Part shown: piece by piece, positions 2,961 to 11,124 of the stretch
Position numbering within the stretch: position 1 is the stretch's first letter
How the letters are laid out: each line of letters starts with the position of its first letter
Notes under the pieces: generated by a model
What the model was told of the DNA's origin: nothing
The model's database searches: none
The model's input: only the letters and a program-made list of their open reading frames with translations
Translations under genes and position numbers: made by a program
Source: Patescibacteria group bacterium
GTDB taxonomy: Bacteria; Patescibacteriota; Minisyncoccia; Phycocordibacterales; JBBUBG01
NCBI GenBank assembly: GCA_040384765.1
Contig: JAZKIQ010000009.1
Location: forward strand, 1 to 13,698
DNA: 13,698 bases
Reading direction: 5' to 3'

Positions 2961-5423
2961 ATGGCAAAAGAGAAAGAATCAAAACCAAACAATCTTCCTG
3001 AGCGCGGCATCGTCGATATCGACATCGTGCCGGAAATGCGCACCTCATTCCTCGACTACGCCATGAGTGTGATCGTGGATCGTGCACTTCCCGACGTGCG
3101 CGATGGGCTAAAGCCAGTGCACCGCCGTATCCTCTATGCCATGCATGAGCTTGGGCTTACCTCTTCTGCAAAGTTTCGCAAGTCCGCAACGGTAGTCGGA
3201 GATGTGCTTGGTAAATATCATCCGCACGGTGATATCTCTGTGTATGACGCAATGGTAAAGATGGCGCAGACGTTTTATATGCGCTACCCGCTTGTGCAAG
3301 GCCAGGGCAACTTCGGCTCGATCGATGGAGACTCGGCTGCTGCTATGCGTTATACCGAGGCGAAAATGTCTCGTCTCGCTGGCGAGCTGTTGCGCGATAT
3401 CGAAAAGGAGACGGTCAACTTTGTTCCAAACTACGACAACTCTCGCAAAGAGCCTGCAGTGATGCCTTCGGTGGTGCCAAACTTGCTCCTAAACGGCACG
3501 CTTGGTATCGCGGTAGGTATGGCGACAAAGGTGCCGCCACACAACCTCCGCGAGCTCATGGACGCGCTTGCGTACCTTCTCGACAACCCAGGAGCGACGA
3601 CCGACGACCTTATGCAGTTTGTCAAAGGCCCTGACTTTCCGACAGGCGGCATCGTATTTAATACAAAAGATATCCATCACGCATACGCAAATGGTCGCGG
3701 TGGTGTGACCGTGCGTGGCGAGGCGGAGATCCTCGAGACGAAGAGCGGCATGTTCCAGATCTTGATCACCTCGCTTCCGTATCAAGTGAACAAAGCCGAG
3801 TTTATTATTCACGTGGCAGACCTCGTCCGCGAGAAAAAGCTCGAGGGAATCAAAGATATCCGTGACGAATCGACGCGCGACGTGCGTATTGTGATCGACC
3901 TCAAGTCCGGCACCTATCCGCAGGCCGTGCTCAACTTTATCTACAAACATACTGAGCTTGAGCAGGTGTTCAACTACAACATGCTCGCACTCTCAGACGG
4001 CGTGCCAAAGCTCCACTCGCTTTCCTCGGTGCTCAATGAGTTCGTAGCGCACCGCAAAGATATTATTCGCCGCCGCACTGAGTACGATCTCAGGAAAGCG
4101 CTCGAGCGCGAGCATATTTTGATCGGTCTTACGATTGCACTTGATCATATCGACGAGGTGATAAAGACGATCAAGCAGTCCAAAGATACTGCTGAAGCGC
4201 ATGCAAACCTCGTAAAGAAGTTTAAGCTTTCAGATATTCAGGCGACTGCGATCCTCGATATGCGCCTGCAGAAGCTTGCCGGACTCGAGCGCAAAAAGAT
4301 CGAAGATGAGCTCAAGAGTGTGCAAGAGCTCATCAAAGAGTTGAAAGAGATCCTTGCGAGCGCAAAGAAAGTGCTCACTATCATCAAAAAGGAGTTCATG
4401 GAGATTGCCGAGAAGCACGGCGATGACCGCCGCACCCGTGTGGTGAAAGGTGCTGCAAAGGCGATCAACATCGAAGACCTCGTACCAGACGAAGAGTCGG
4501 TGCTTGTGTTCACGCGTGGTGGCTATGTAAAGCGTACGCATCCTACCGAATATCGCGCACAGCGCCGCGGCGGCGTGGGCGTAATGGACCTCGATACAAA
4601 AGAGGAAGATTTCATTTCACTTTTTCTTACGGCAAATACGCACGCAGACCTTCTCTTCTTTACCGATCGCGGCAAGGCATACCAGATCAAGATGTACGAG
4701 ATTCCGGAAGGGAAGCGCGCTACAAAGGGCAAATCGATCATCAACTTTATTTCACTCGGTGATACTGAGCGCGTAACCTCGATCCTTGCGATGCCGAAAG
4801 ATGTGAAGGGCACCTCGCTCTCGCTCCTTATGGTGACAAAGCTTGGTGTTACCAAGAAAGTTGCCGCAGACTCCTTTACCGATGTGCGCCGCTCGGGCCT
4901 CATTGCTATTACGCTCGAAGCAGGAGACGAGCTTCTCTCGGCAAAGCTCTGCCAGAAGAGCGACGACATTATTCTCACCACTTCAGAGGGTCAGTCGATC
5001 CGATTTAAAGAGTCTGATATTCGCCAGATGGGCCGCACAGCTATGGGTGTGACCGCCATGAAGCTTGGCAAGAAAGGCGATATTATTGTTGGTGCAGATA
5101 TCGTAAAGGGCGGCACCAAAGATGCTGAGCTCTTGGTGATGTCCGCAAACGGCTACGGCAAGAAAACCAAAATTACGGAATATAAGGTGCAGAAGCGTGC
5201 AGGCTCGGGTATCAAGGCAATGAATGTAACACCAAAGACGGGCAAGCTGATGGTCTCAAAGGTTGTCACCGAAGCTGAATCGGAACTGATCGCCATCTCG
5301 AAGAACTCCCAGGTGATCCGCATCGGCCTCGACGAGGTCCCATCGCTCGGGCGCTCGACACAGGGTGTGCGTATTATGAAGCTTCGTGAAGGGGATAGTA
5401 TTGCTTCGCTCACGTGTTTGTAG
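2961..5423 (+). CDS. gyrA: DNA gyrase subunit A
   Basis: The 820-aa product has a topo II A N-terminal domain with the active-site region [15 protein letters not shown]-like [17 protein letters not shown], and [11 protein letters not shown]. The C-terminal beta-pinwheel repeats include a GyrA-box-like QRRGGVG. Confidence 0.92.
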
Positions 5424-5436
5424 TTCTGTGGCGCTC

Positions 5437-5540
5437 CTAAAATCTCGACCTGCTTTGTCGCGGGCTCCAGTCCTCGCTCATGGAGCAGTAACTCCATTCG
5501 CTTCGGGCTTCGCCCGCTTCGCGCATCTCGAAGATTTTAG
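5437..5540 (+). repeat. Inverted-repeat element, copy A, of a three-member family. Its 12-bp terminal stem (ctaaaatctcga/tcgaagattttag) has one bulged nucleotide
   Basis: It lies 14 nt after the gyrA stop. It shares with copy B the ordered motifs ctaaaatc-N4-cctgctttgtYgc ... cgcgcatc-N4'-gatttYtag. N4 and N4' are complementary and covary (tcga/tcga here, ctca/tgag in B). Confidence 0.6.
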
Positions 5541-5560
5541 TTCACGTGGGGTTGCGTTTA

Positions 5561-5566
5561 TATAAT
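5561..5566 (+). promoter_or_regulatory. Possible -10 box (TATAAT) 7 nt upstream of the ATG of the 5574 gene, implying a leaderless or near-leaderless transcript. No convincing -35 is present
   Basis: tataat at 5561-5566 and ATG at 5574. There is no SD. Confidence 0.25.
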
Positions 5567-5573
5567 TGAAAAA

Positions 5574-6638
5574 ATGAAGCAAAAACTGATTCTTCTTATT
5601 GTGTTTGTGGGAGTTTTCTTGGCTATTGGGTATTCGACTGGCATGAGGGGGGTGGCGCAAGAAGGCGTGGGTGCTTCTTCTGAGCAATCGGGCAGTGCTC
5701 GACTGTCAGATGAGGCGATTCGACACGCGTCGATTCCGAATCTCTTTTTCGGCGAACCTTTCGGAAACTACAGCGTTCTCGATGGGGGTGTTGCCTACTA
5801 TACCGAGTCTTCGAAGTCTCCCAATGGTCAAACACGTAGTGCAACAGCGACCGACTATTTTACCGCTATCGACACGAGCGTCTCGTTTGCGCATGACGAC
5901 CTCGATGGAGACGGTGACCCAGATACCGCCGTTATTATGCTGAGCCGCTCCGGAGGTACGGGTACGTTTTATGATCTCGTTGTATTCCGCAATGAGAACG
6001 GGCAGCCTCTCTTTGTGGATCGCGCAATGGTTGGAGATCGGATTGTTGTTCAATCACTTTCGATCAAAAATGGAATCGTTACTATCGACATGCTTGATCA
6101 TGGACCTGGTGAGCCGTTGGTGAGCGCAACATTTCCAAAGACCCTTCAATTTCAACTTATGAATGGAAAGCTCACTCTCATGCAGCTTGCGCAGGGAGAT
6201 GAGGTCGAGGTTACTGGTGAGCAAGCAGCCGTTGCCGCTGTCGCAAAAACATCGATTGCTGCAAAGATCGAGCAGCTTGCACCAGGCACCTTTACTCTTT
6301 CCCGAACGAACTCTTCTGTTGACGATGGTCTCCCTCACATCTACTCCCGCTATTACGGATCTAAGAAAGGATATCTCGTCGAGGTTTACCTCGATAGAGA
6401 GGGTGAATGCTACCAGGGAAAATTCACGTGTCTTATGACGAAGCTTTTCTCAGGAGAGGAGCTAAAGAAAATGTGTACATCTTACTATGATTCTGTGGAG
6501 GAATGCATCAGCACCACGACTGTTGCCACATTTGATGTAAATGAAAAAGGGATCGTGGGTAACTTTCGCATGGAAAGCGCAATCCGGAGCGATGCACAGG
6601 CGCGAGAAGAATCTCTTAGGGCAGCTGGATACTACTAG
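5574..6638 (+). CDS. Secreted or membrane-anchored hypothetical protein of 354 aa with an FG-GAP/VCBS-like calcium-binding-type motif
   Basis: It has an N-terminal hydrophobic signal/anchor, KLILLIVFVGVFLAIGYS. The motif FAHDDLDGDGDPDTAVIM...GTGTFYDLVVF resembles a single FG-GAP-type repeat. A Cys-containing C-terminal region follows. Confidence 0.55.
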   Translation: MKQKLILLIVFVGVFLAIGYSTGMRGVAQEGVGASSEQSGSARLSDEAIRHASIPNLFFGEPFGNYSVLDGGVAYYTESSKSPNGQTRSATATDYFTAIDTSVSFAHDDLDGDGDPDTAVIMLSRSGGTGTFYDLVVFRNENGQPLFVDRAMVGDRIVVQSLSIKNGIVTIDMLDHGPGEPLVSATFPKTLQFQLMNGKLTLMQLAQGDEVEVTGEQAAVAAVAKTSIAAKIEQLAPGTFTLSRTNSSVDDGLPHIYSRYYGSKKGYLVEVYLDREGECYQGKFTCLMTKLFSGEELKKMCTSYYDSVEECISTTTVATFDVNEKGIVGNFRMESAIRSDAQAREESLRAAGYY

Positions 6639-6713
6639 GTTTCGCCGATGAGGATGAAGATTGAGTAGTTCTTTCCACACGGCACGGAAGCTGCCCTCTG
6701 TTATACTCTCTGT

Positions 6714-7244: not shown

Positions 7245-8581
7245 ACAAAGGTTCCAACTTCCAGCTCGTCGTTCTCGCATTTTTCGGCGTCATCCTTGTT
7301 GCGGGTGTTCTTCTTTTTGCAGGCTTTGGCGGAGGGGGCGGCCTTGGGGGTGCCGGTCGCGGTGCTACCCTCACTCTCTGGGGTACGGTGCCCGATAGTG
7401 TGATGGCCCCTCTTCTCAATACGTTTTCCCAAGAGTACCAAGATTCAATCGGACAGGTGCTCTACGAAGAGAAGCGTGCAGATAGCTTTGAGAGTGATCT
7501 GGTAAACGCGCTCGCCTCGGGCAAAGGTCCGGACATGGTGATCATCCCCCAGGGGCTTTTGGTGCGCCAGGCCGACAAACTGTTGCCTCTTTCGTATGAG
7601 CAGTTTACTCAGCGTAAATATCTCGATGCCTATACAGACGGTTCGGATATCTTTCTCACCAACAATGGCATTCTCGCGCTTCCCCTCTCGGTAGACCCGG
7701 TGGTTTTGTACTGGAATAAGCAGCTTTTCTCGGGAGCGGGCCTCACCTCTCCTCCGCGTTTTTGGGATGAGCTGCTCACGCTCCCTGAGAAGCTCGTGGT
7801 AAAAGATGTTCGTGGCACTATCTCGCAAGCGGCCATCTCTCTTGGTGGCTATCGCAATGTAACCCGTGCAAAAGAGACGCTCTCCTCGCTTTTTCTGCAG
7901 GTTGGCGACTCGATTACCGAGCCGGTCTTTAGCGAAGCGGGTCTTGGGGTGAATCCTGTGCTTGGAGATTCAGCTGCACGCGGAGCGGGTCCCGCCGAAT
8001 CAGCACTTCGCTTCTATGTACAGTTCGCAGACCCTGCAAAAGCGGTGTATAGCTGGAACAGCGCATTGCCGCAGTCGCGTGATCTCTTTGCGCGCGGGAG
8101 CTTGGCGATGTACGTGGGTGTTGCAAGCGACCTCGCAGCAATCCAAAGCGCAAATCCGCATCTCTCGTTTGACGTAGCTCCGCTTCCACAGGTGCGGCCA
8201 GTCAGCGGTGGCCAGCCAAATGCACGGGTGTACGGCAACTACGGAGCACTTGCTGTTCTTCGTGCGGGGAAAAACCCTGCGCTTTCAATGCAGGCGGCGT
8301 TTCTCCTTTCTACCACCAACTATGCGGAGGCGTATGCGCGTGCCCTCGGCTTGGCACCAGCTCGCCGCGACCTTCTTTCGCAAAATACAAGCGGCAATGC
8401 GTTGCGAGCCGTTGTCTTTAAGGCTGCTCTCAACGCTCATGGATGGCTCGATCCGTCCCCGCTCGGTACCGATGCGATATTTCGAAGCATGGTAGAATCT
8501 TTGGTATCAGGAGGTATCACTGAGCGCCAAGCGCTTTCAGAAGCTCGCGCCGATATGAGTGCCCTTGGACAACAACGATGA
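7241..8581 (+). CDS. Extracellular solute-binding protein family-1-like (MalE-like SBP fold) protein. It is membrane-tethered by an N-terminal TM helix followed by a Gly-rich linker
   Basis: A TM helix, LVVLAFFGVILVAGVLLFAGF, is followed by GGGGGLGGAG. The SBP_bac_1 hallmark stretches are present: TLTLWGTVPD, ..GKGPDMVII.., LALPLSVDPVVLYWNKQLFSGAGLTSPPRFWDELL, and MYVGVASDLAAIQSANPHLSFDVAPLP. It overlaps both neighbours by 4 nt (ATGA). Confidence 0.6.
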   Translation: MNKGSNFQLVVLAFFGVILVAGVLLFAGFGGGGGLGGAGRGATLTLWGTVPDSVMAPLLNTFSQEYQDSIGQVLYEEKRADSFESDLVNALASGKGPDMVIIPQGLLVRQADKLLPLSYEQFTQRKYLDAYTDGSDIFLTNNGILALPLSVDPVVLYWNKQLFSGAGLTSPPRFWDELLTLPEKLVVKDVRGTISQAAISLGGYRNVTRAKETLSSLFLQVGDSITEPVFSEAGLGVNPVLGDSAARGAGPAESALRFYVQFADPAKAVYSWNSALPQSRDLFARGSLAMYVGVASDLAAIQSANPHLSFDVAPLPQVRPVSGGQPNARVYGNYGALAVLRAGKNPALSMQAAFLLSTTNYAEAYARALGLAPARRDLLSQNTSGNALRAVVFKAALNAHGWLDPSPLGTDAIFRSMVESLVSGGITERQALSEARADMSALGQQR

Positions 8582-9009
8582 AAATGAGCCTGCGTTCATG
8601 TGCCGCACTATTTCTTTCCGCGCTTTTCTTGCTTGGTCCTTCGCTCGCTCTTGCCCTTGAGCCGAACGCCCCGCTCTCTGGTGCGCCGGTAAATCTGCAG
8701 GCACCATGCGGCAATAGAGCGGGAGGTACTGGAGAAACGCGAGAGTGCACCGTTGCGGACTTCATCAATTTCGTTGGGAGTATCGTTCAGTTTTTGATTT
8801 TTCAGATCTCGATCCCTCTCGCGGTGCTCGCTTTTGTGGTGCTTGGCTTCCGACTGGTGGTGAGTCAAAACAAGCCGACCGTGTATGCTGAGACCAAAAA
8901 ATATCTGATGGACCTGGTGCTCGGTATTTTTCTCGTCGTCTCTGCGTACGCGATCGTATCGTTTATATACAGCTTTGTAGCGGAGCCGTACCGCATATTT
9001 TTTAGATAA
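8578..9009 (+). CDS. Pilin-like small membrane protein, paralog 1, resembling the VirB2/TrbC and T4SS-pilin family. It has a signal peptide and two TM helices
   Basis: A signal peptide, SCAALFLSALFLLGPSLALA, is followed by two hydrophobic helices, SIVQFLIFQISIPLAVLAFVVLGF and LVLGIFLVVSAYAIVSFIY. These are separated by a short polar loop (SQNKPTVYAETKK). The mature N-region has two Cys (PCG...ECT). It is translationally coupled to the upstream SBP-like gene. Confidence 0.55.
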   Translation: MKMSLRSCAALFLSALFLLGPSLALALEPNAPLSGAPVNLQAPCGNRAGGTGETRECTVADFINFVGSIVQFLIFQISIPLAVLAFVVLGFRLVVSQNKPTVYAETKKYLMDLVLGIFLVVSAYAIVSFIYSFVAEPYRIFFR

Positions 9010-9014
9010 TAGTA

Positions 9015-9374
9015 ATGAAAAAAAAGCATCTCCATGGTTTGGCTGGGGCAGCACTCGGATACCTCTTGTTTCCAGCGATTGTGTTTGCCCAGATCGTGAA
9101 CCCATTTAAGGGCGTCGAAAACCTCACCGGTCAGAATGGGCTTCTTGAAAAGCTGATCTCTATTGCTCTCCAGATCGGTATTCCGATCATGGTGCTTATG
9201 ATCATGTGGATTGGCTTTCAGTATGTGTGGGAGGCTTCAAAGGGCAAGGCGGCAAACCTGGCAACCATCCACAAAAATTTCCAATTCACGCTTCTTGGAG
9301 CGGCGCTTCTTCTTGGCGCCTATGTGATTCTTGAGATTTTGCAGAACACCTTTAGATCGCTTCAATCACGCTAA
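9015..9374 (+). CDS. Pilin-like small membrane protein, paralog 2, resembling the VirB2/TrbC and T4SS-pilin family
   Basis: It has a signal peptide with an AxA-type cleavage site (AIVFA|QIV). The helices are IALQIGIPIMVLMIMWIGFQYVW and FTLLGAALLLGAYVILEIL, separated by the loop EASKGKAANLATIHK. It starts 5 nt after paralog 1. Confidence 0.55.
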   Translation: MKKKHLHGLAGAALGYLLFPAIVFAQIVNPFKGVENLTGQNGLLEKLISIALQIGIPIMVLMIMWIGFQYVWEASKGKAANLATIHKNFQFTLLGAALLLGAYVILEILQNTFRSLQSR

Positions 9375-9378
9375 TATC

Positions 9379-9873
9379 ATGAAAAAACTGTTTTTTATAG
9401 TAAGTCTCGTCTTCTCGTTGCTTGCTCCTACTGCCATTGCAATGCCTGTGTATGCTGCACCTGGGGATGAATTTCAGAATGATCTTTTTACCAGCCAAAA
9501 TAGCCAAGGGACATACTACAAGGAGTTTACGCTAGGCTTGCAGCAGGGTGGCGGAGGATCCGGTGCTCGGGGCACCTGTGCTAGCTCGGGTGCCCGCATA
9601 CGGGATCTCAAAGGTCTCCTCTGTTATGCGCAGGACATCATCAACTACAACATCATTCCGCTCATTTTTGCGTACGCTCTGCTGATGTTCCTGTGGGGTG
9701 TCGTCTCGTATATCCAAAAGCCAGACCTCGCCGAGCAGGCAAAGCAGAAGATTTTATATGGGGTGTTCGGGCTCGCGGCAATGGTGTCTGTATGGGGATT
9801 GGTAAACCTGGTGGTGAGAACGTTCAATCTTGATAATACGCCTATTCGCGTCCAAGATATCCAGGTTCGCTAA
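9379..9873 (+). CDS. Pilin-like small membrane protein, paralog 3. The ORF track begins at 9331, but the Met at 9379 (MKKLFFIV...) is the likely start
   Basis: It has a signal peptide, MKKLFFIVSLVFSLLAPTAIAMPVYA|AP. A mature domain follows with a Gly-rich segment and two Cys. The TM helices are IIPLIFAYALLMFLWGVVSYIQKPD and ILYGVFGLAAMVSVWGLVNLVVRTF. The motifs YI(Q/R)KPD and VWGLVNLV are shared with paralog 4 at both the protein and nucleotide level. Confidence 0.55.
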   Translation: MKKLFFIVSLVFSLLAPTAIAMPVYAAPGDEFQNDLFTSQNSQGTYYKEFTLGLQQGGGGSGARGTCASSGARIRDLKGLLCYAQDIINYNIIPLIFAYALLMFLWGVVSYIQKPDLAEQAKQKILYGVFGLAAMVSVWGLVNLVVRTFNLDNTPIRVQDIQVR

Positions 9874-9994
9874 AACATTCTAGAAGCCCCATCTTCTTTG
9901 TTGTCTTCGTCAGGAAAAACCTCAACGTACCTTTAAAAGTACGTCTCAGCTTTTCCCTCCTAGCCGCCTCGAACCTGGGGCTTCTAGAATGTTT
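9873..9994 (+). repeat. Inverted-repeat element, copy C. It has perfect 20-bp terminal inverted repeats (aaaacattctagaagcccca / tggggcttctagaatgtttt) enclosing about 82 bp
   Basis: The left arm at 9873-9892 overlaps the last base of the TAA stop of pilin paralog 3. The right arm is at 9975-9994. The interior shares ctttgttgYcttcg with copy B, and the termini share a ttctaRaa core. Confidence 0.6.
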
Positions 9995-10004
9995 TGGTTG
10001 GGAT

Positions 10005-10046
10005 GATATCCACACTCGGGCAGCCCCTTAGGGCGGCCCGAGTGGT
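10005..10046 (+). other. Compound GC-rich hairpin: a 9-bp stem, CACTCGGGC/GCCCGAGTG, encloses a nested CCC-tta-GGG mini-hairpin, and the outer stem extends imperfectly. No U-tract follows
   Basis: cactcgggc at 10012-10020 pairs with gcccgagtg at 10034-10042. The flanks tgatatc/gtatca pair with one bulge. The hairpin lies between IR element C and the pilin paralog 4 start. Confidence 0.4.
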
Positions 10047-10085
10047 ATCATAAAGTAAATCGATTAACGCATATAAGCATTTTCC

Positions 10086-10460
10086 ATGAAAAATACGCTC
10101 ATTAGGTGGCTCTCTGTTCTCGGGATATTCTTCACCCCAGCATACGCATACGCTCAGTCATCGACCGGTGCCATCGGTATTATCGACCGCGTGCAGTTCA
10201 TCATGAACACTCGTGTAGTGCCGATCATTATCGGTATTGCGCTTATCTACTTTTTGCTCGGAGTGCTTGAGTATATTCGAAAGCCAGACGGTATCATTAG
10301 CGAAACGGCTCGTTCGCGGATGGTGTACGGACTCATCGGTCTTTTTGTGATGATCTCAGTATGGGGACTCGTAAATCTTGTTGGTGATACCTTTGGTATT
10401 CAGAGTGGAGGACAGGCTCCGATCCTTCCCATCGTCAACCCCAACAAACAAGGGATATAG
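10086..10460 (+). CDS. Pilin-like small membrane protein, paralog 4
   Basis: It has a signal peptide, LSVLGIFFTPAYAYA|QSS. The TM helices are VVPIIIGIALIYFLLGVLEYIRKPD and MVYGLIGLFVMISVWGLVNLVGDTFG. It is the closest paralog of gene 3. A TATAAG box ends about 8 nt before the ATG, and there is no SD. Confidence 0.55.
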   Translation: MKNTLIRWLSVLGIFFTPAYAYAQSSTGAIGIIDRVQFIMNTRVVPIIIGIALIYFLLGVLEYIRKPDGIISETARSRMVYGLIGLFVMISVWGLVNLVGDTFGIQSGGQAPILPIVNPNKQGI

Positions 10461-10462
10461 AG

Positions 10463-10572
10463 TTCTAAAATCCTCACCTGCTTTGTTGCTTCGCTCCGGG
10501 GCTCATTCACAAGGCAAGTTCGCCTTGCTCAATCGCTCCTCACTCGCGCCGCGCATCTGAGGATTTCTAGAA
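10463..10572 (+). repeat. Inverted-repeat element, copy B. Its 14-bp terminal stem (ttctaaaatcctca/tgaggatttctagaa) has one bulged C
   Basis: It starts 3 nt after the pilin paralog 4 stop and ends 26 nt before the paralog 5 ATG. With copy A it shares ctaaaatc, cctgctttgtYgc and cgcgcatc in the same order. The 4-nt segment adjacent to the shared termini is compensatorily changed relative to A. Confidence 0.6.
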
Positions 10573-10598
10573 TCTCTCTATAAAGCAACGTTTGTCCA

Positions 10599-10841
10599 AT
10601 GGTAAACCTGATCGACCGAATTAAGGAGAATATCCTCAACCCCATCATGGGGATCATGCTCACTGTTGCGCTCGTGGTGTTCTTGATGGGGATCTACCGA
10701 CTGTTTATTGCCAAGGATAACGAGGCGTTGGGTTCCCAGGGGCTTAAAAATGTGACGTGGGGTCTTGTGGGCTTTGCGATCATCGTGTCTGCTTACGGAA
10801 TTCTCAGTTTCGTGTGTGTGACCGTGACAGCGTGCTCGTAG
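10599..10841 (+). CDS. Pilin-like small membrane protein, paralog 5. It lacks an N-terminal signal peptide and may be truncated or degenerate
   Basis: It has two TM helices, IMGIMLTVALVVFLMGIYRLFIA and VTWGLVGFAIIVSAYGILSFV. Its C-terminal VSAYxIxSF is shared with paralog 1. No signal peptide is present, and no SD sits within normal distance. Confidence 0.45.
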   Translation: MVNLIDRIKENILNPIMGIMLTVALVVFLMGIYRLFIAKDNEALGSQGLKNVTWGLVGFAIIVSAYGILSFVCVTVTACS

Positions 10842-11057
10842 AAAAGTCTAGAGGATGTTTTAAAAGCCTAGATCCGAGGCTCAGCTGCGAATACTTGGAG
10901 CAGTTGAGGGCCGGAAGGAGCAGAGGCGACTGAGGCGGGGTCGAGAACTTTTTGAGTACAAAAAGATTCGTGACACGAGGAAGGAAAAGGTGAGCTGTAC
11001 ATAGGGTACAGTGAGCGTTTTCTGACCGAAGGTAACGACGGAGGTGGGCTTTTAAAA

Positions 11058-11103
11058 TATTCTCTAAAAAAGAAAAAGGGCGGTCACTTGTCAGTGACCG
11101 CCC
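11058..11103 (-). terminator. Rho-independent terminator for the minus-strand operon: an 11-bp perfect stem with a 4-nt loop, then an oligo-U tract on the minus-strand transcript
   Basis: gggcggtcact at 11078-11088 pairs perfectly with agtgaccgccc at 11093-11103. On the minus strand the hairpin is followed by TTTTTCTTTTTTAGAG, the complement of plus-strand 11061-11077. It lies 22 nt past the stop at 11125. Confidence 0.7.
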
Positions 11104-11124
11104 TTTGCCGTTGCGCAAGACGCG

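Follow-up and report, generated by a model that had tools for sequence, protein, structure and literature searches.

An uncatalogued family of strand-specifically folding hairpin elements behind gyrA and pilin genes of a Patescibacteria bacterium

The locus and its four hairpins

The first 13,698 nt of contig JAZKIQ010000009.1 of a Patescibacteria group bacterium (assembly GCA_040384765.1), called the window below, carry four long hairpin elements, A, C, B and D in map order. They are members of one widespread, uncatalogued family. Element A follows the gyrase gene gyrA, and the other three lie in or behind a cluster of five pilin genes resembling those of TrbC and type IV secretion system (T4SS) pilins. 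The products of the cluster (8578-10841) have 143, 119, 180, 124 and 80 amino acids (aa), the stop codons of pilin genes 3, 4 and 5 are at 9871-9873, 10458-10460 and 10839-10841, and convergent minus-strand genes follow. The relatives of its GyrA protein put the window in the Patescibacteria/Paceibacteria. A transposase or recombinase domain was found by Pfam in no open reading frame (ORF) of the window. The features are as follows, the strand of A, C and B being the better-folding one and R2 being a family model described below.

2961-5423, plus strand: gyrA, stop codon 5421-5423 (ORF listing and Pfam)
8578-9009, 9015-9374, 9331-9873, 10086-10460 and 10599-10841, all plus strand: pilin genes 1 to 5, TrbC/T4SS-pilin-like (ORF listing and Pfam)
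5429-5547, minus strand: element A (R2 52.8 bits, E 8e-14)
9872-9995, minus strand: element C, an inverted repeat with 25-nt arms that are 92% complementary (R2 74.4 bits)
10457-10577, minus strand: element B (R2 84 bits, E about 3e-24)
10463-10489, plus strand: gene-proximal half of the B core, TTCTAAAATCCTCA-CCTGCTTTGTTGC, reverse-complementary to the family motif GCAACRAAGCAG (supported by direct-repeat families D2 and D14 and by the family consensus)
10547-10572, plus strand: gene-distal half of the B core, CGCGCCGCGCATC-TGAGGATTTCTAG, the reverse complement of the family motif ATGCGNGGCGC (direct-repeat family D15; family consensus)
10849-11066, plus strand: element D, an enlarged 218-nt member in the orientation opposite to A, B and C (inverted repeat of 10849-10876 with 11039-11066, 28-nt arms)
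11075-11106, both directions: bidirectional intrinsic terminator of canonical type between the convergent genes (14-bp stem with 8 G-C pairs and a T-run in a terminator scan)

The main stem of A (5437-5540) begins 13 nt past the gyrA stop, and the element reads CTAAAATC-TCGA-CCTGCTTTGTCGC ... CGCGCATC-TCGA-(A)GATTTTAG. Element B reads CTAAAATC-CTCA-CCTGCTTTGTTGC ... CGCGCATC-TGAG-GATTTCTAG; its outer stem, TATAGAG/CTCTCTATA, overlaps the stop of the pilin-4 gene, and the outer stem of C overlaps the stop of the pilin-3 gene. An earlier note on this DNA, made from the letters alone, had described A, C and B as repeats placed directly 3' of stop codons, and the repeats, the motifs quoted for them and this placement were all recovered. 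The 4-nt blocks that it had singled out are indeed complementary inside each copy (TCGA/TCGA in A, CTCA/TGAG in B). A fourth copy, D, had been overlooked. This member sits between the pilin-5 stop and the host terminator, which lies outside the element, D having been inserted upstream of it. The interior of D is branched and enlarged to three sub-hairpins, and both halves of the core are kept (AUCCGAGGC at about 10870-10880 and UAACGACGGAGG at about 11031-11042). It was matched on the plus strand at 10944-11061 by both family models (R1, 37 bits; R2, 34 bits), and TCTA stands on either side of it.

The folding energy was lower on the minus strand than on the plus strand for A (-54.7 versus -46.0 kcal/mol), C (-66.2 versus -52.1 kcal/mol) and B (-49.2 versus -41.8 kcal/mol), and lower on the plus strand for D (-96.9 kcal/mol, z = -9.4, versus -56.7 kcal/mol on the minus strand). 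Compared with dinucleotide shuffles, A, B and C had z scores of -4.6, -7.5 and -4.7 on the plus strand and of -6.4, -8.6 and -5.2 on the minus strand, and all three fold far better than shuffled sequences. The best-folding strand is termed the model strand below (minus for A, B and C; plus for D). The statement that none of the copies carries a U-tract was not upheld: the outer stem of the family holds an A-run on its 5' side and a T-run on its 3' side, and the inner stem is directly followed by TTTT in A and TTTCT in B. Canonical intrinsic terminators have a short G+C-rich stem of about 5-15 bp and a small loop, with a U-run directly behind. In a consensus terminator scan A, B, C and D were not called as whole units; on both strands the family keeps the A-run and T-run around the base of the hairpin.

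Family membership, core and strand-specific folding

Model R1 was built from six copies, and the covariance model R2 from 82 metagenomic members only, with the window excluded. All four window copies were recovered by R2 (B at 84, C at 74, A at 53 and D at 34 bits), with E values down to about 3e-24 from this independent model, which bears out the proposal of a true family. In 1.2 Mb of Paceibacteria loci R1 detected five further copies, among them the interior portion of D; 682 kb of viral loci holding chance matches to a loose pattern served as control and gave no match at E <= 0.01 (best 18.9 bits, E 0.14). A strict core pattern, CTGCTTYGTTGY-N45-70-GCGCCNYGCAT, gave at least 120 matches of tightly clustered length in metagenomes, and 82 full-length members in 80 loci were recognised by R1 at E <= 0.001 among the matches listed. 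The same pattern had a single match in 2.9 million viral contigs, where a loose core pattern gave chance matches only and no model match. The window thus has four copies, the Paceibacteria loci and the window together have ten, and most metagenomic loci have one copy per several kb. The GC content of the element ranges from 0.34 to 0.72 across the metagenomic members. Many of the metagenomic copies neighbour genes of bacteria with ordinary metabolism (MoeA, ABC transporters, amidohydrolases, sensor kinases), and therefore the family is not confined to bacteria of the Candidate Phyla Radiation (CPR). Hairpins with the same core were also seen 3' of gyrA in L039 and L080, and a further one in L005. 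The copies next to gyrA in L039 and L080 could not be recognised as orthologues of A, as pairwise identity (0.43-0.57) was no higher than between unrelated copies.

The element was not matched in the catalogues searched. BLAST of a canonical metagenomic copy (from L250) against 72,556 plasmids gave no match, Rfam 15 gave none at E <= 1 in the window, and in 12 metagenomic loci with canonical copies Rfam 15 matched only neighbouring tRNAs and no element at E <= 0.1. A full-text literature search on words of the core sequence returned nothing relevant, and in the literature on MITEs (miniature transposable elements with inverted repeats) in the CPR the terms co-occurred only in passing mention. 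The translated element had no Pfam match, and no recurrent linked gene family was found near the 82 metagenomic copies.

On the model strand, the consensus starts with the outer stem and its A-run, followed by CAG-AUGC-GAGGCGC, a variable helix and a purine-rich stretch; next come GGCGUAC-loop-GUACGUYGAG, the variable helix again, GCAACGAAGCAG-AUGGG, and the T-run with the outer stem. On this strand the core folds into a rod-like hairpin whose internal loop, 5'-GAGGC / 5'-AACRAA, is asymmetric and conserved. More distant members show covariation in the helix UGC/GCA (UUC/GAA, UCC/GGA, AAC/GUU), with the internal loop still conserved. Since the metagenomic set was picked by the core pattern, the invariance of the core in its alignment is partly by construction, the helices being unconstrained. 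What look like internal loops are in several cases tandem G.A mismatches between G-C pairs; these mismatches are stabilising on the model strand and would be C.U/U.C on the opposite strand. A kink-turn was considered for the conserved internal loop and rejected by a hand check, as the G.A/A.G register next to a 3-nt bulge does not fit.

Pairing was well preserved in the alignment of the 82 members. Standard pairs made up 90.9% of cells, compared with 66.8% in shuffles, cells changed on both sides numbered 593 compared with 171, and pairing fell to 26-45% when the partners were slid by 1-3 columns. The stems are therefore kept by compensatory change, as had been argued from the 4-nt blocks of two copies. 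The sequence of the long outer stem varies freely with its pairing kept, and it usually has the A-run on the 5' arm and the T-run on the 3' arm; in three of the four A-run columns A-U pairs occur in 57-65 of the 82 members and U-A pairs in 1-3. The paired columns hold 197 G-U/U-G pairs versus 35 A-C/C-A combinations. When members were folded without the alignment, the model strand had the lower energy in 81 of the 82 (mean -57.5 versus -46.6 kcal/mol, an average advantage of 10.9 kcal/mol), and this strand is 59% purine. The window copies show the same strand-specific folding as the metagenomic members. The strand bias travels with the element and not with its surroundings, and one strand therefore matters in single-stranded form, as RNA or DNA.

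Ends, empty sites and position relative to genes

The outer stems are inverted repeats of 15-28 bp. In the sense of the gene, many members have the layout stop codon, CAGGCTGTTGAAAAAGG, core, CCTTTTTGAACAGCCTG, about 10 nt and TTTTTCAACAGNCTG, that is, one gene-proximal terminal repeat and two in tandem on the distal side; of these two, the outer one matches the inverse of the proximal end better. The three-part layout recurs in other subfamilies, where the sequences differ (GATGGCGTCGTAAAAA..., GTGTTTGAACGAAAAC...), and the end pairs of two subfamilies are CAGGCTGTTGAAAAA ... TTTTTCAACAGNCTG and GATGGCGTCGTAAAAA ... TTTTTACGAGCTTGTC. The third repeat, at 9 or more matches in 11, was present in 41 of 80 members versus 5 of 81 controls. 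Direct repeats flanking the elements were judged from inspected cases and from comparison with empty sites, automated detection being blunted by fuzzy element boundaries. Exact 8-bp repeats flank the copies in L230 (AAGCTGTT), L266 (ATAGTAAT) and L268 (TAATTAAG), and exact 4-bp repeats flank members of the CAGGCTG subfamily (TTTA in L250, CTAA in L231, ATAA in L236, TTAG in L218 and TTAA in L211; also TAAA). These direct repeats often contain a stop codon. In the CAGGCTG subfamily TAA, TAG or TGA directly abuts the left end in 13 of 25 members, about one being expected by chance.

Solo terminal repeats without a hairpin core were seen at about 3654-3670 in L250 and 3236-3252 in L265 (CAGGCTGTTGAAAAAC; TTGGCGTCGTAAAAG), one of them just upstream of the start codon of a family-2 glycosyltransferase. 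They may be remnants or independent binding sites.

Three syntenic relatives, L322, L323 and L324, have GyrA proteins 86%, 87% and 84% identical to that of the window. They share with it the gene order S1 protein, beta-lactamase-fold protein, gyrA, variable segment, methyltransferase, solute-binding protein, pilin cluster, convergent genes and Band 7 protein, and their pilin clusters consist of the same five genes (one uncalled in L322). The gaps between the pilin genes of the relatives are 3-95 nt long and hold no element: those orthologous to the B site (21-22 nt) are empty, an equivalent of C lies between pilin genes in none of the three, and the last pilin gene is directly followed by the equivalent of the terminator at 11075-11106 and by nothing else. 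The empty site of D in L322 reads GTCTAGAG-AAAAGAAAAAAC, then the terminator. The insertions B, C and D are hence particular to the lineage of the window. The gaps after gyrA are free of the element in L322 (75 nt) and L323 (27 nt), and L324 has a decayed orthologue of A in this position (28 bits). Its outer stem is preserved by three double substitutions (CTAAAATCTCGA/TCGAAGATTTTAG versus TTAAAATCTTCA/TGAATAATTTTAA); 9 nt of the core are lost between two GCTTCGC repeats, and the folding preference for the model strand is gone. Two more copies in L324 lie behind the Pth and RbfA genes. The one behind Pth stands between the stop codon and an intact bidirectional terminator, whereas in L322 the site is empty and the terminator comes directly after the stop. 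Per syntenic stretch there are four copies in the window, three in L324 and none in L322 or L323. From this presence, absence and decay it follows that the elements are gained, decayed and lost on the time scale of species divergence. Judged by these comparisons, the neighbouring genes appear to do without the elements.

Between gyrA and the methyltransferase gene lies an island of variable content, at 5424-6713 in the window, 12467-16794 in L322, 4770-8774 in L323 and 12470-13364 in L324. It holds one gene in the window (354 aa, no Pfam match), six in L322, five in L323 and one in L324, and in many more distant relatives the methyltransferase gene directly follows gyrA. Other hairpins of about 100 nt with perfect 15-20-bp terminal stems occur just after the gyrA stop in L031 (12421-12526), L034 and L046; they lack the core of the family, were not matched by the models and may represent other foldback repeat families in the same niche. 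The gyrA gene itself is about 1.2 kb longer in L054, L055, L075 and L076 (matches span about 3.6 kb), and for P0025 (1246 aa) precomputed Pfam adds PF14528 and PF14890 to the usual gyrase domains, so that the longer GyrA looks like the result of an intein insertion.

With the gene calls of the metagenomic loci made by a crude longest-ORF heuristic, an ORF of at least 80 aa lies opposite to the model strand and ends at the 3' end of the model strand in 46 of 93 members, the mirror arrangement being seen in 14 of 93. The distances of ORF ends to the model-strand 3' end peak at -2 to +5. The same arrangement is found in A, B and C and in two copies of L324 (the one after pth and one that overlaps the rbfA stop), and D is the exception. 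A position directly 3' of genes is thus a property of the family, and the mRNA of the gene carries the weaker, pyrimidine-rich strand. At other loci both orientations are seen, and copies are also found in divergent regions and next to tRNA genes. The 3:1 bias may reflect the way in which the elements insert, counter-selection of the stronger hairpin in mRNA, or the preferential loss of copies that have the strong-folding strand on the lagging-strand template.

Members and tRNA genes that lie 2-8 nt apart were seen in L245 (12-128, 136-207, 279-397, 401-473) and L264 (30-152, 154-226). In L245 two copies lie 4-8 nt upstream of two tRNA genes on the same strand, and in L264 the copy adjoins the 3' end of a tRNA on the opposite strand.

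Spurious-looking ORFs (57-114 aa) run across elements at 5153-5497, 9842-10015 and 10804-11118 on the minus strand of the window and at 10285-10473 in L212. In the metagenomic loci such ORFs cluster as a pseudo-family ('...LLKKAHLLRC...'). They are almost certainly spurious, and the repeat probably seeds false hypothetical proteins in databases. An imperfect hairpin at 10003-10052, between element C and the start of pilin gene 4 (ATGATATCCACACTCGGGC ... GCCCGAGTGGTATCAT), has a small G+C hairpin inside its loop and no T-run after it, and was matched by neither family model. Several start codons of the window have a TATAAA/TATAAT-like box 10-15 nt upstream and no obvious Shine-Dalgarno sequence (for example 5559-5566 ahead of the start at 5574, and 10581-10586 ahead of the start at 10599), which hints at leaders that are very short or absent.

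Probable mobility and rival explanations

The family probably consists of non-coding, non-autonomous, MITE-like foldback elements of about 105-220 bp with a conserved strand-specific core. MITE insertion was one option of the earlier note, and it is the reading best supported here, by insertion/absence polymorphism and terminal inverted repeats. The note had also reasoned that clear target-site duplications plus a cognate transposase would mark the repeats as ordinary MITEs; flanking direct repeats were found in relatives, but a transposase was not, and constraint on the structure is evident. A transposase acting in trans would mobilise the elements by binding the terminal repeats, and insertion would occur at short A/T-rich, NTAA/NTAG-like targets. 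Where coding density is high, such targets would be tolerated for the most part at stop codons, in the stretch from the stop to the host terminator. The NTAA/NTAG-like targets, together with a duplication that preserves the stop, are a suggested reason why the elements touch stop codons. The conserved core would be needed by the element itself, as single-stranded DNA or as RNA of one strand, and not by the adjoining gene. An inserted copy may add a hairpin and T-run that block transcription in both directions, but this would not be the cause of its presence; as host terminators persist beside the elements, termination would be a side effect at most.

Several observations weigh against this interpretation. 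The length of the direct repeats differs between subfamilies (4 versus 8 bp), and an automated boundary test, in which the boundaries are fuzzy, gave a modest enrichment of common substrings of at least 5 nt (10 of 41 versus 8.6% of controls). Elements A, B and C lack both the third repeat and an unambiguous target duplication, and D alone has a candidate (TCTA). Conservation across subfamilies is that of the core and not of the terminal repeats, the opposite of what ordinary MITEs show, and a cut-and-paste DNA transposon leaves the strand-specific G-U and G.A bias unexplained. In the window no transposase with matching ends was detected, and none recurs around the 82 metagenomic copies. The sole distant partner repeat, in L265, precedes the glycosyltransferase gene, and no gene is enclosed by such a partner. 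The metagenomic members were, moreover, ascertained with the core pattern, and the gene calls around them were crude. The family thus differs from textbook MITEs: the core and not the ends is conserved, selection for pairing concerns one strand only, and no mobilising gene was found. A less likely possibility is that the purine-rich rod hairpin, marked by its G.U and tandem G.A pairs, the invariant GAGGC/AACRAA loop and the variable, covarying stems, is more than a passive interior of a transposon and forms a functional single-stranded module common to Patescibacteria and unrelated bacteria. It would act either as substrate or guide of an undescribed hairpin-dependent mobility, or as an element-borne RNA of the antisense strand, which might insulate the 3' ends of genes from antisense transcription or terminate it there. 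Hairpin-dependent mobility would explain a conserved core alongside variable terminal repeats and variable duplication length.

A function in RNA could be sought on either strand. The earlier note had likened the repeats to stabilisers of the repetitive extragenic palindrome (REP) or bacterial interspersed mosaic element (BIME) type, or to RNase III sites in a pilin transcript, and it is true that the elements begin 0-13 nt past stop codons, that the plus-strand RNA folds well too (z = -4.6 to -7.5), and that the A-run and T-run layout places a T-run after the inner hairpin on either strand. Precedents exist in Correia elements with RNase III, ERIC with RNase E, and the terminator-like SPRITE repeat (PMC10969869, PMC3049150, PMC2229807). 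The strand on which pairing is selected is, however, antisense to gyrA and the pilin genes, and its G.U and G.A correspond to C.A and pyrimidine-pyrimidine mismatches in the mRNA strand. In addition, the three relatives carry the same pilin cluster without B, C and D, the gyrA copy is decayed in L324 and absent in L322 and L323, canonical terminators persist downstream of D (11075-11106) and of the Pth copy of L324, and members elsewhere occur in either orientation and beside tRNA genes. The strand asymmetry and the relatives weaken the stabiliser or RNase III reading. With the best-folding strand opposite to the genes, a role as mRNA 3'-end stabiliser is unlikely, and selection by the host for a 3' untranslated structure of the upstream mRNA in general, whether as stabiliser, RNase III site or long-hairpin terminator, is quite improbable. 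Transcription of the folding strand itself, as a small structured RNA or as a cis-antisense RNA or terminator against backward transcription into the gene 3' end, would fit the G-U and tandem G.A bias, which is intrinsic to one strand in any context, the T-run after the hairpin on the model strand, the antisense arrangement to the abutting gene (46 of 93 versus 14 of 93) and the two same-strand copies 4-8 nt upstream of tRNA genes in L245. On inspection, though, no promoter motif upstream of the hairpin was conserved across subfamilies, a promoter scan of the window remained at chance level, there was no Rfam family match, and presence, absence and decay in close relatives speak against an essential RNA. 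An element-borne RNA from the antisense strand is regarded as doubtful.

The folded strand is also the one expected if each pilin gene and its downstream hairpin formed an integron-type cassette with an attC-like single-stranded recombination site. Sites of the attC type are 57-141 nt long. The elements lie within this size range, their structure is conserved and their sequence variable, they stand directly 3' of small ORFs of the same direction (pilin genes 3, 4 and 5), and their folded strand is complementary to the ORF, as in attC bottom strands (46 of 93 versus 14 of 93; A, B and C). Against this, the ends have no RYYYAAC/GTTRRRY core or AAC/GTT triplets, outer stems differ wholly between members, and no integrase was found in the window or recurrently near the 82 members. 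In the relatives the pilin genes occur without hairpins, which indicates that the hairpin moves by itself and not together with a gene as one unit; copies are dispersed at about one per several kb, after gyrA, pth, rbfA and tRNA genes, and not in arrays; and flanking direct repeats are present. As core sites, integrase and gene-plus-site unit all fail, identity with attC was rejected, and we rate it as highly improbable. Template switching can yield seemingly compensatory changes in DNA palindromes without selection, and unrelated long hairpins follow gyrA in L031, L034 and L046, so palindromes produced by chance or by quasi-palindrome correction, with neither family nor selection, were also weighed. 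The unpaired core motifs are, however, common to contigs with element GC contents of 0.34 to 0.72, E values reach 1e-24 with a model never trained on the window, and palindrome correction would erase the strand-specific G.U and G.A, yet both are retained. Such an origin was refuted by the family-level statistics and is virtually excluded.

Among known systems, the probable MITE-like elements come closest to Correia (NEMIS/CREE) of Neisseria and ERIC/IRU of enterobacteria, which are non-coding, multi-copy, transcribed foldback MITEs of 100-160 bp (PMC10969869, PMC2229807). In both cases the whole element is one long imperfect hairpin, intergenic and often at gene 3' ends, with insertion/absence polymorphism, and Correia and ERIC have orientation-dependent effects (PMC10969869, PMC2229807). 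They differ in having conserved terminal repeats and a freer core, where the family described here has a conserved core and varying terminal stems. No sequence similarity to them was found by plasmid BLAST, Rfam or the sequence-word literature search. The present family furthermore folds strand-specifically, with the favoured strand antisense to the abutting gene, and it spans Patescibacteria and metabolically ordinary bacteria rather than one genus. SPRITE of pneumococcus is an interspersed repeat with AAAA/TTTT terminal repeats and a long duplex followed by a U-rich tract, enriched near the 3' ends of coding sequences, and recruitment of a mobile element as terminator has been suggested for it (PMC3049150). 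The A-run and T-run at the hairpin base make the present elements look likewise like a long-hairpin intrinsic terminator on both strands; SPRITE, however, has an 18-bp duplex, no conserved internal-loop core and no established target-site duplication, and is limited to pneumococcus and S. mitis, whereas the present elements are rods of about 120 nt inserted upstream of persisting host terminators. Integron attC sites share imperfect inverted repeats, a similar length, the position directly 3' of an ORF and a folded strand complementary to it; they differ in their R''/R' core triplets and integrase, neither of which was found here, and the present elements are dispersed and are gained and lost without the gene. 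REP elements are extragenic palindromes at gene 3' ends that serve as strand-specific single-strand substrates (PMC2817692). They are 20-40 nt long and G+C-rich, with a conserved GTAG-type head, BIME pairs and a RAYT gene, in contrast to rods of 105-220 nt, and neither REP-like short units nor a Y1 transposase domain was found in the window.

Insertion sequences (IS) provide a lead only. IS5 makes 4-bp duplications at YTAR targets, and the IS21 family makes duplications of 4-8 bp and has several subterminal repeats. The 4-bp NTAA/NTAG and the 8-bp direct repeats and the doubled terminal repeat resemble these, so that DDE insertion sequences of the IS5 or IS21 type are possible mobilisers. A transposase of either type was found near none of the copies, and the ends CAGGCTGTTGAAAAA and GATGGCGTCGTAAAAA were not matched to a known IS.

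Patescibacteria have small genomes that are usually thought to be poor in mobile DNA. The present family adds to them an abundant and apparently undescribed interspersed repeat, with relatives in many environmental bacteria. Its elements could pass for terminators, attC sites or sRNA (small RNA) genes, and they lead to false ORF calls where frames run over the hairpins; copies of the family can be masked or annotated with the covariance model from this analysis. On the evidence of the syntenic relatives, the hairpins after gyrA and the pilin genes appear to be recent, dispensable insertions rather than an inherent component of how the pilin operon is regulated. The inversion of the usual MITE logic, with a conserved core and variable ends, together with the strand-specific fold, points to a candidate single-stranded DNA or RNA step in mobility or regulation.

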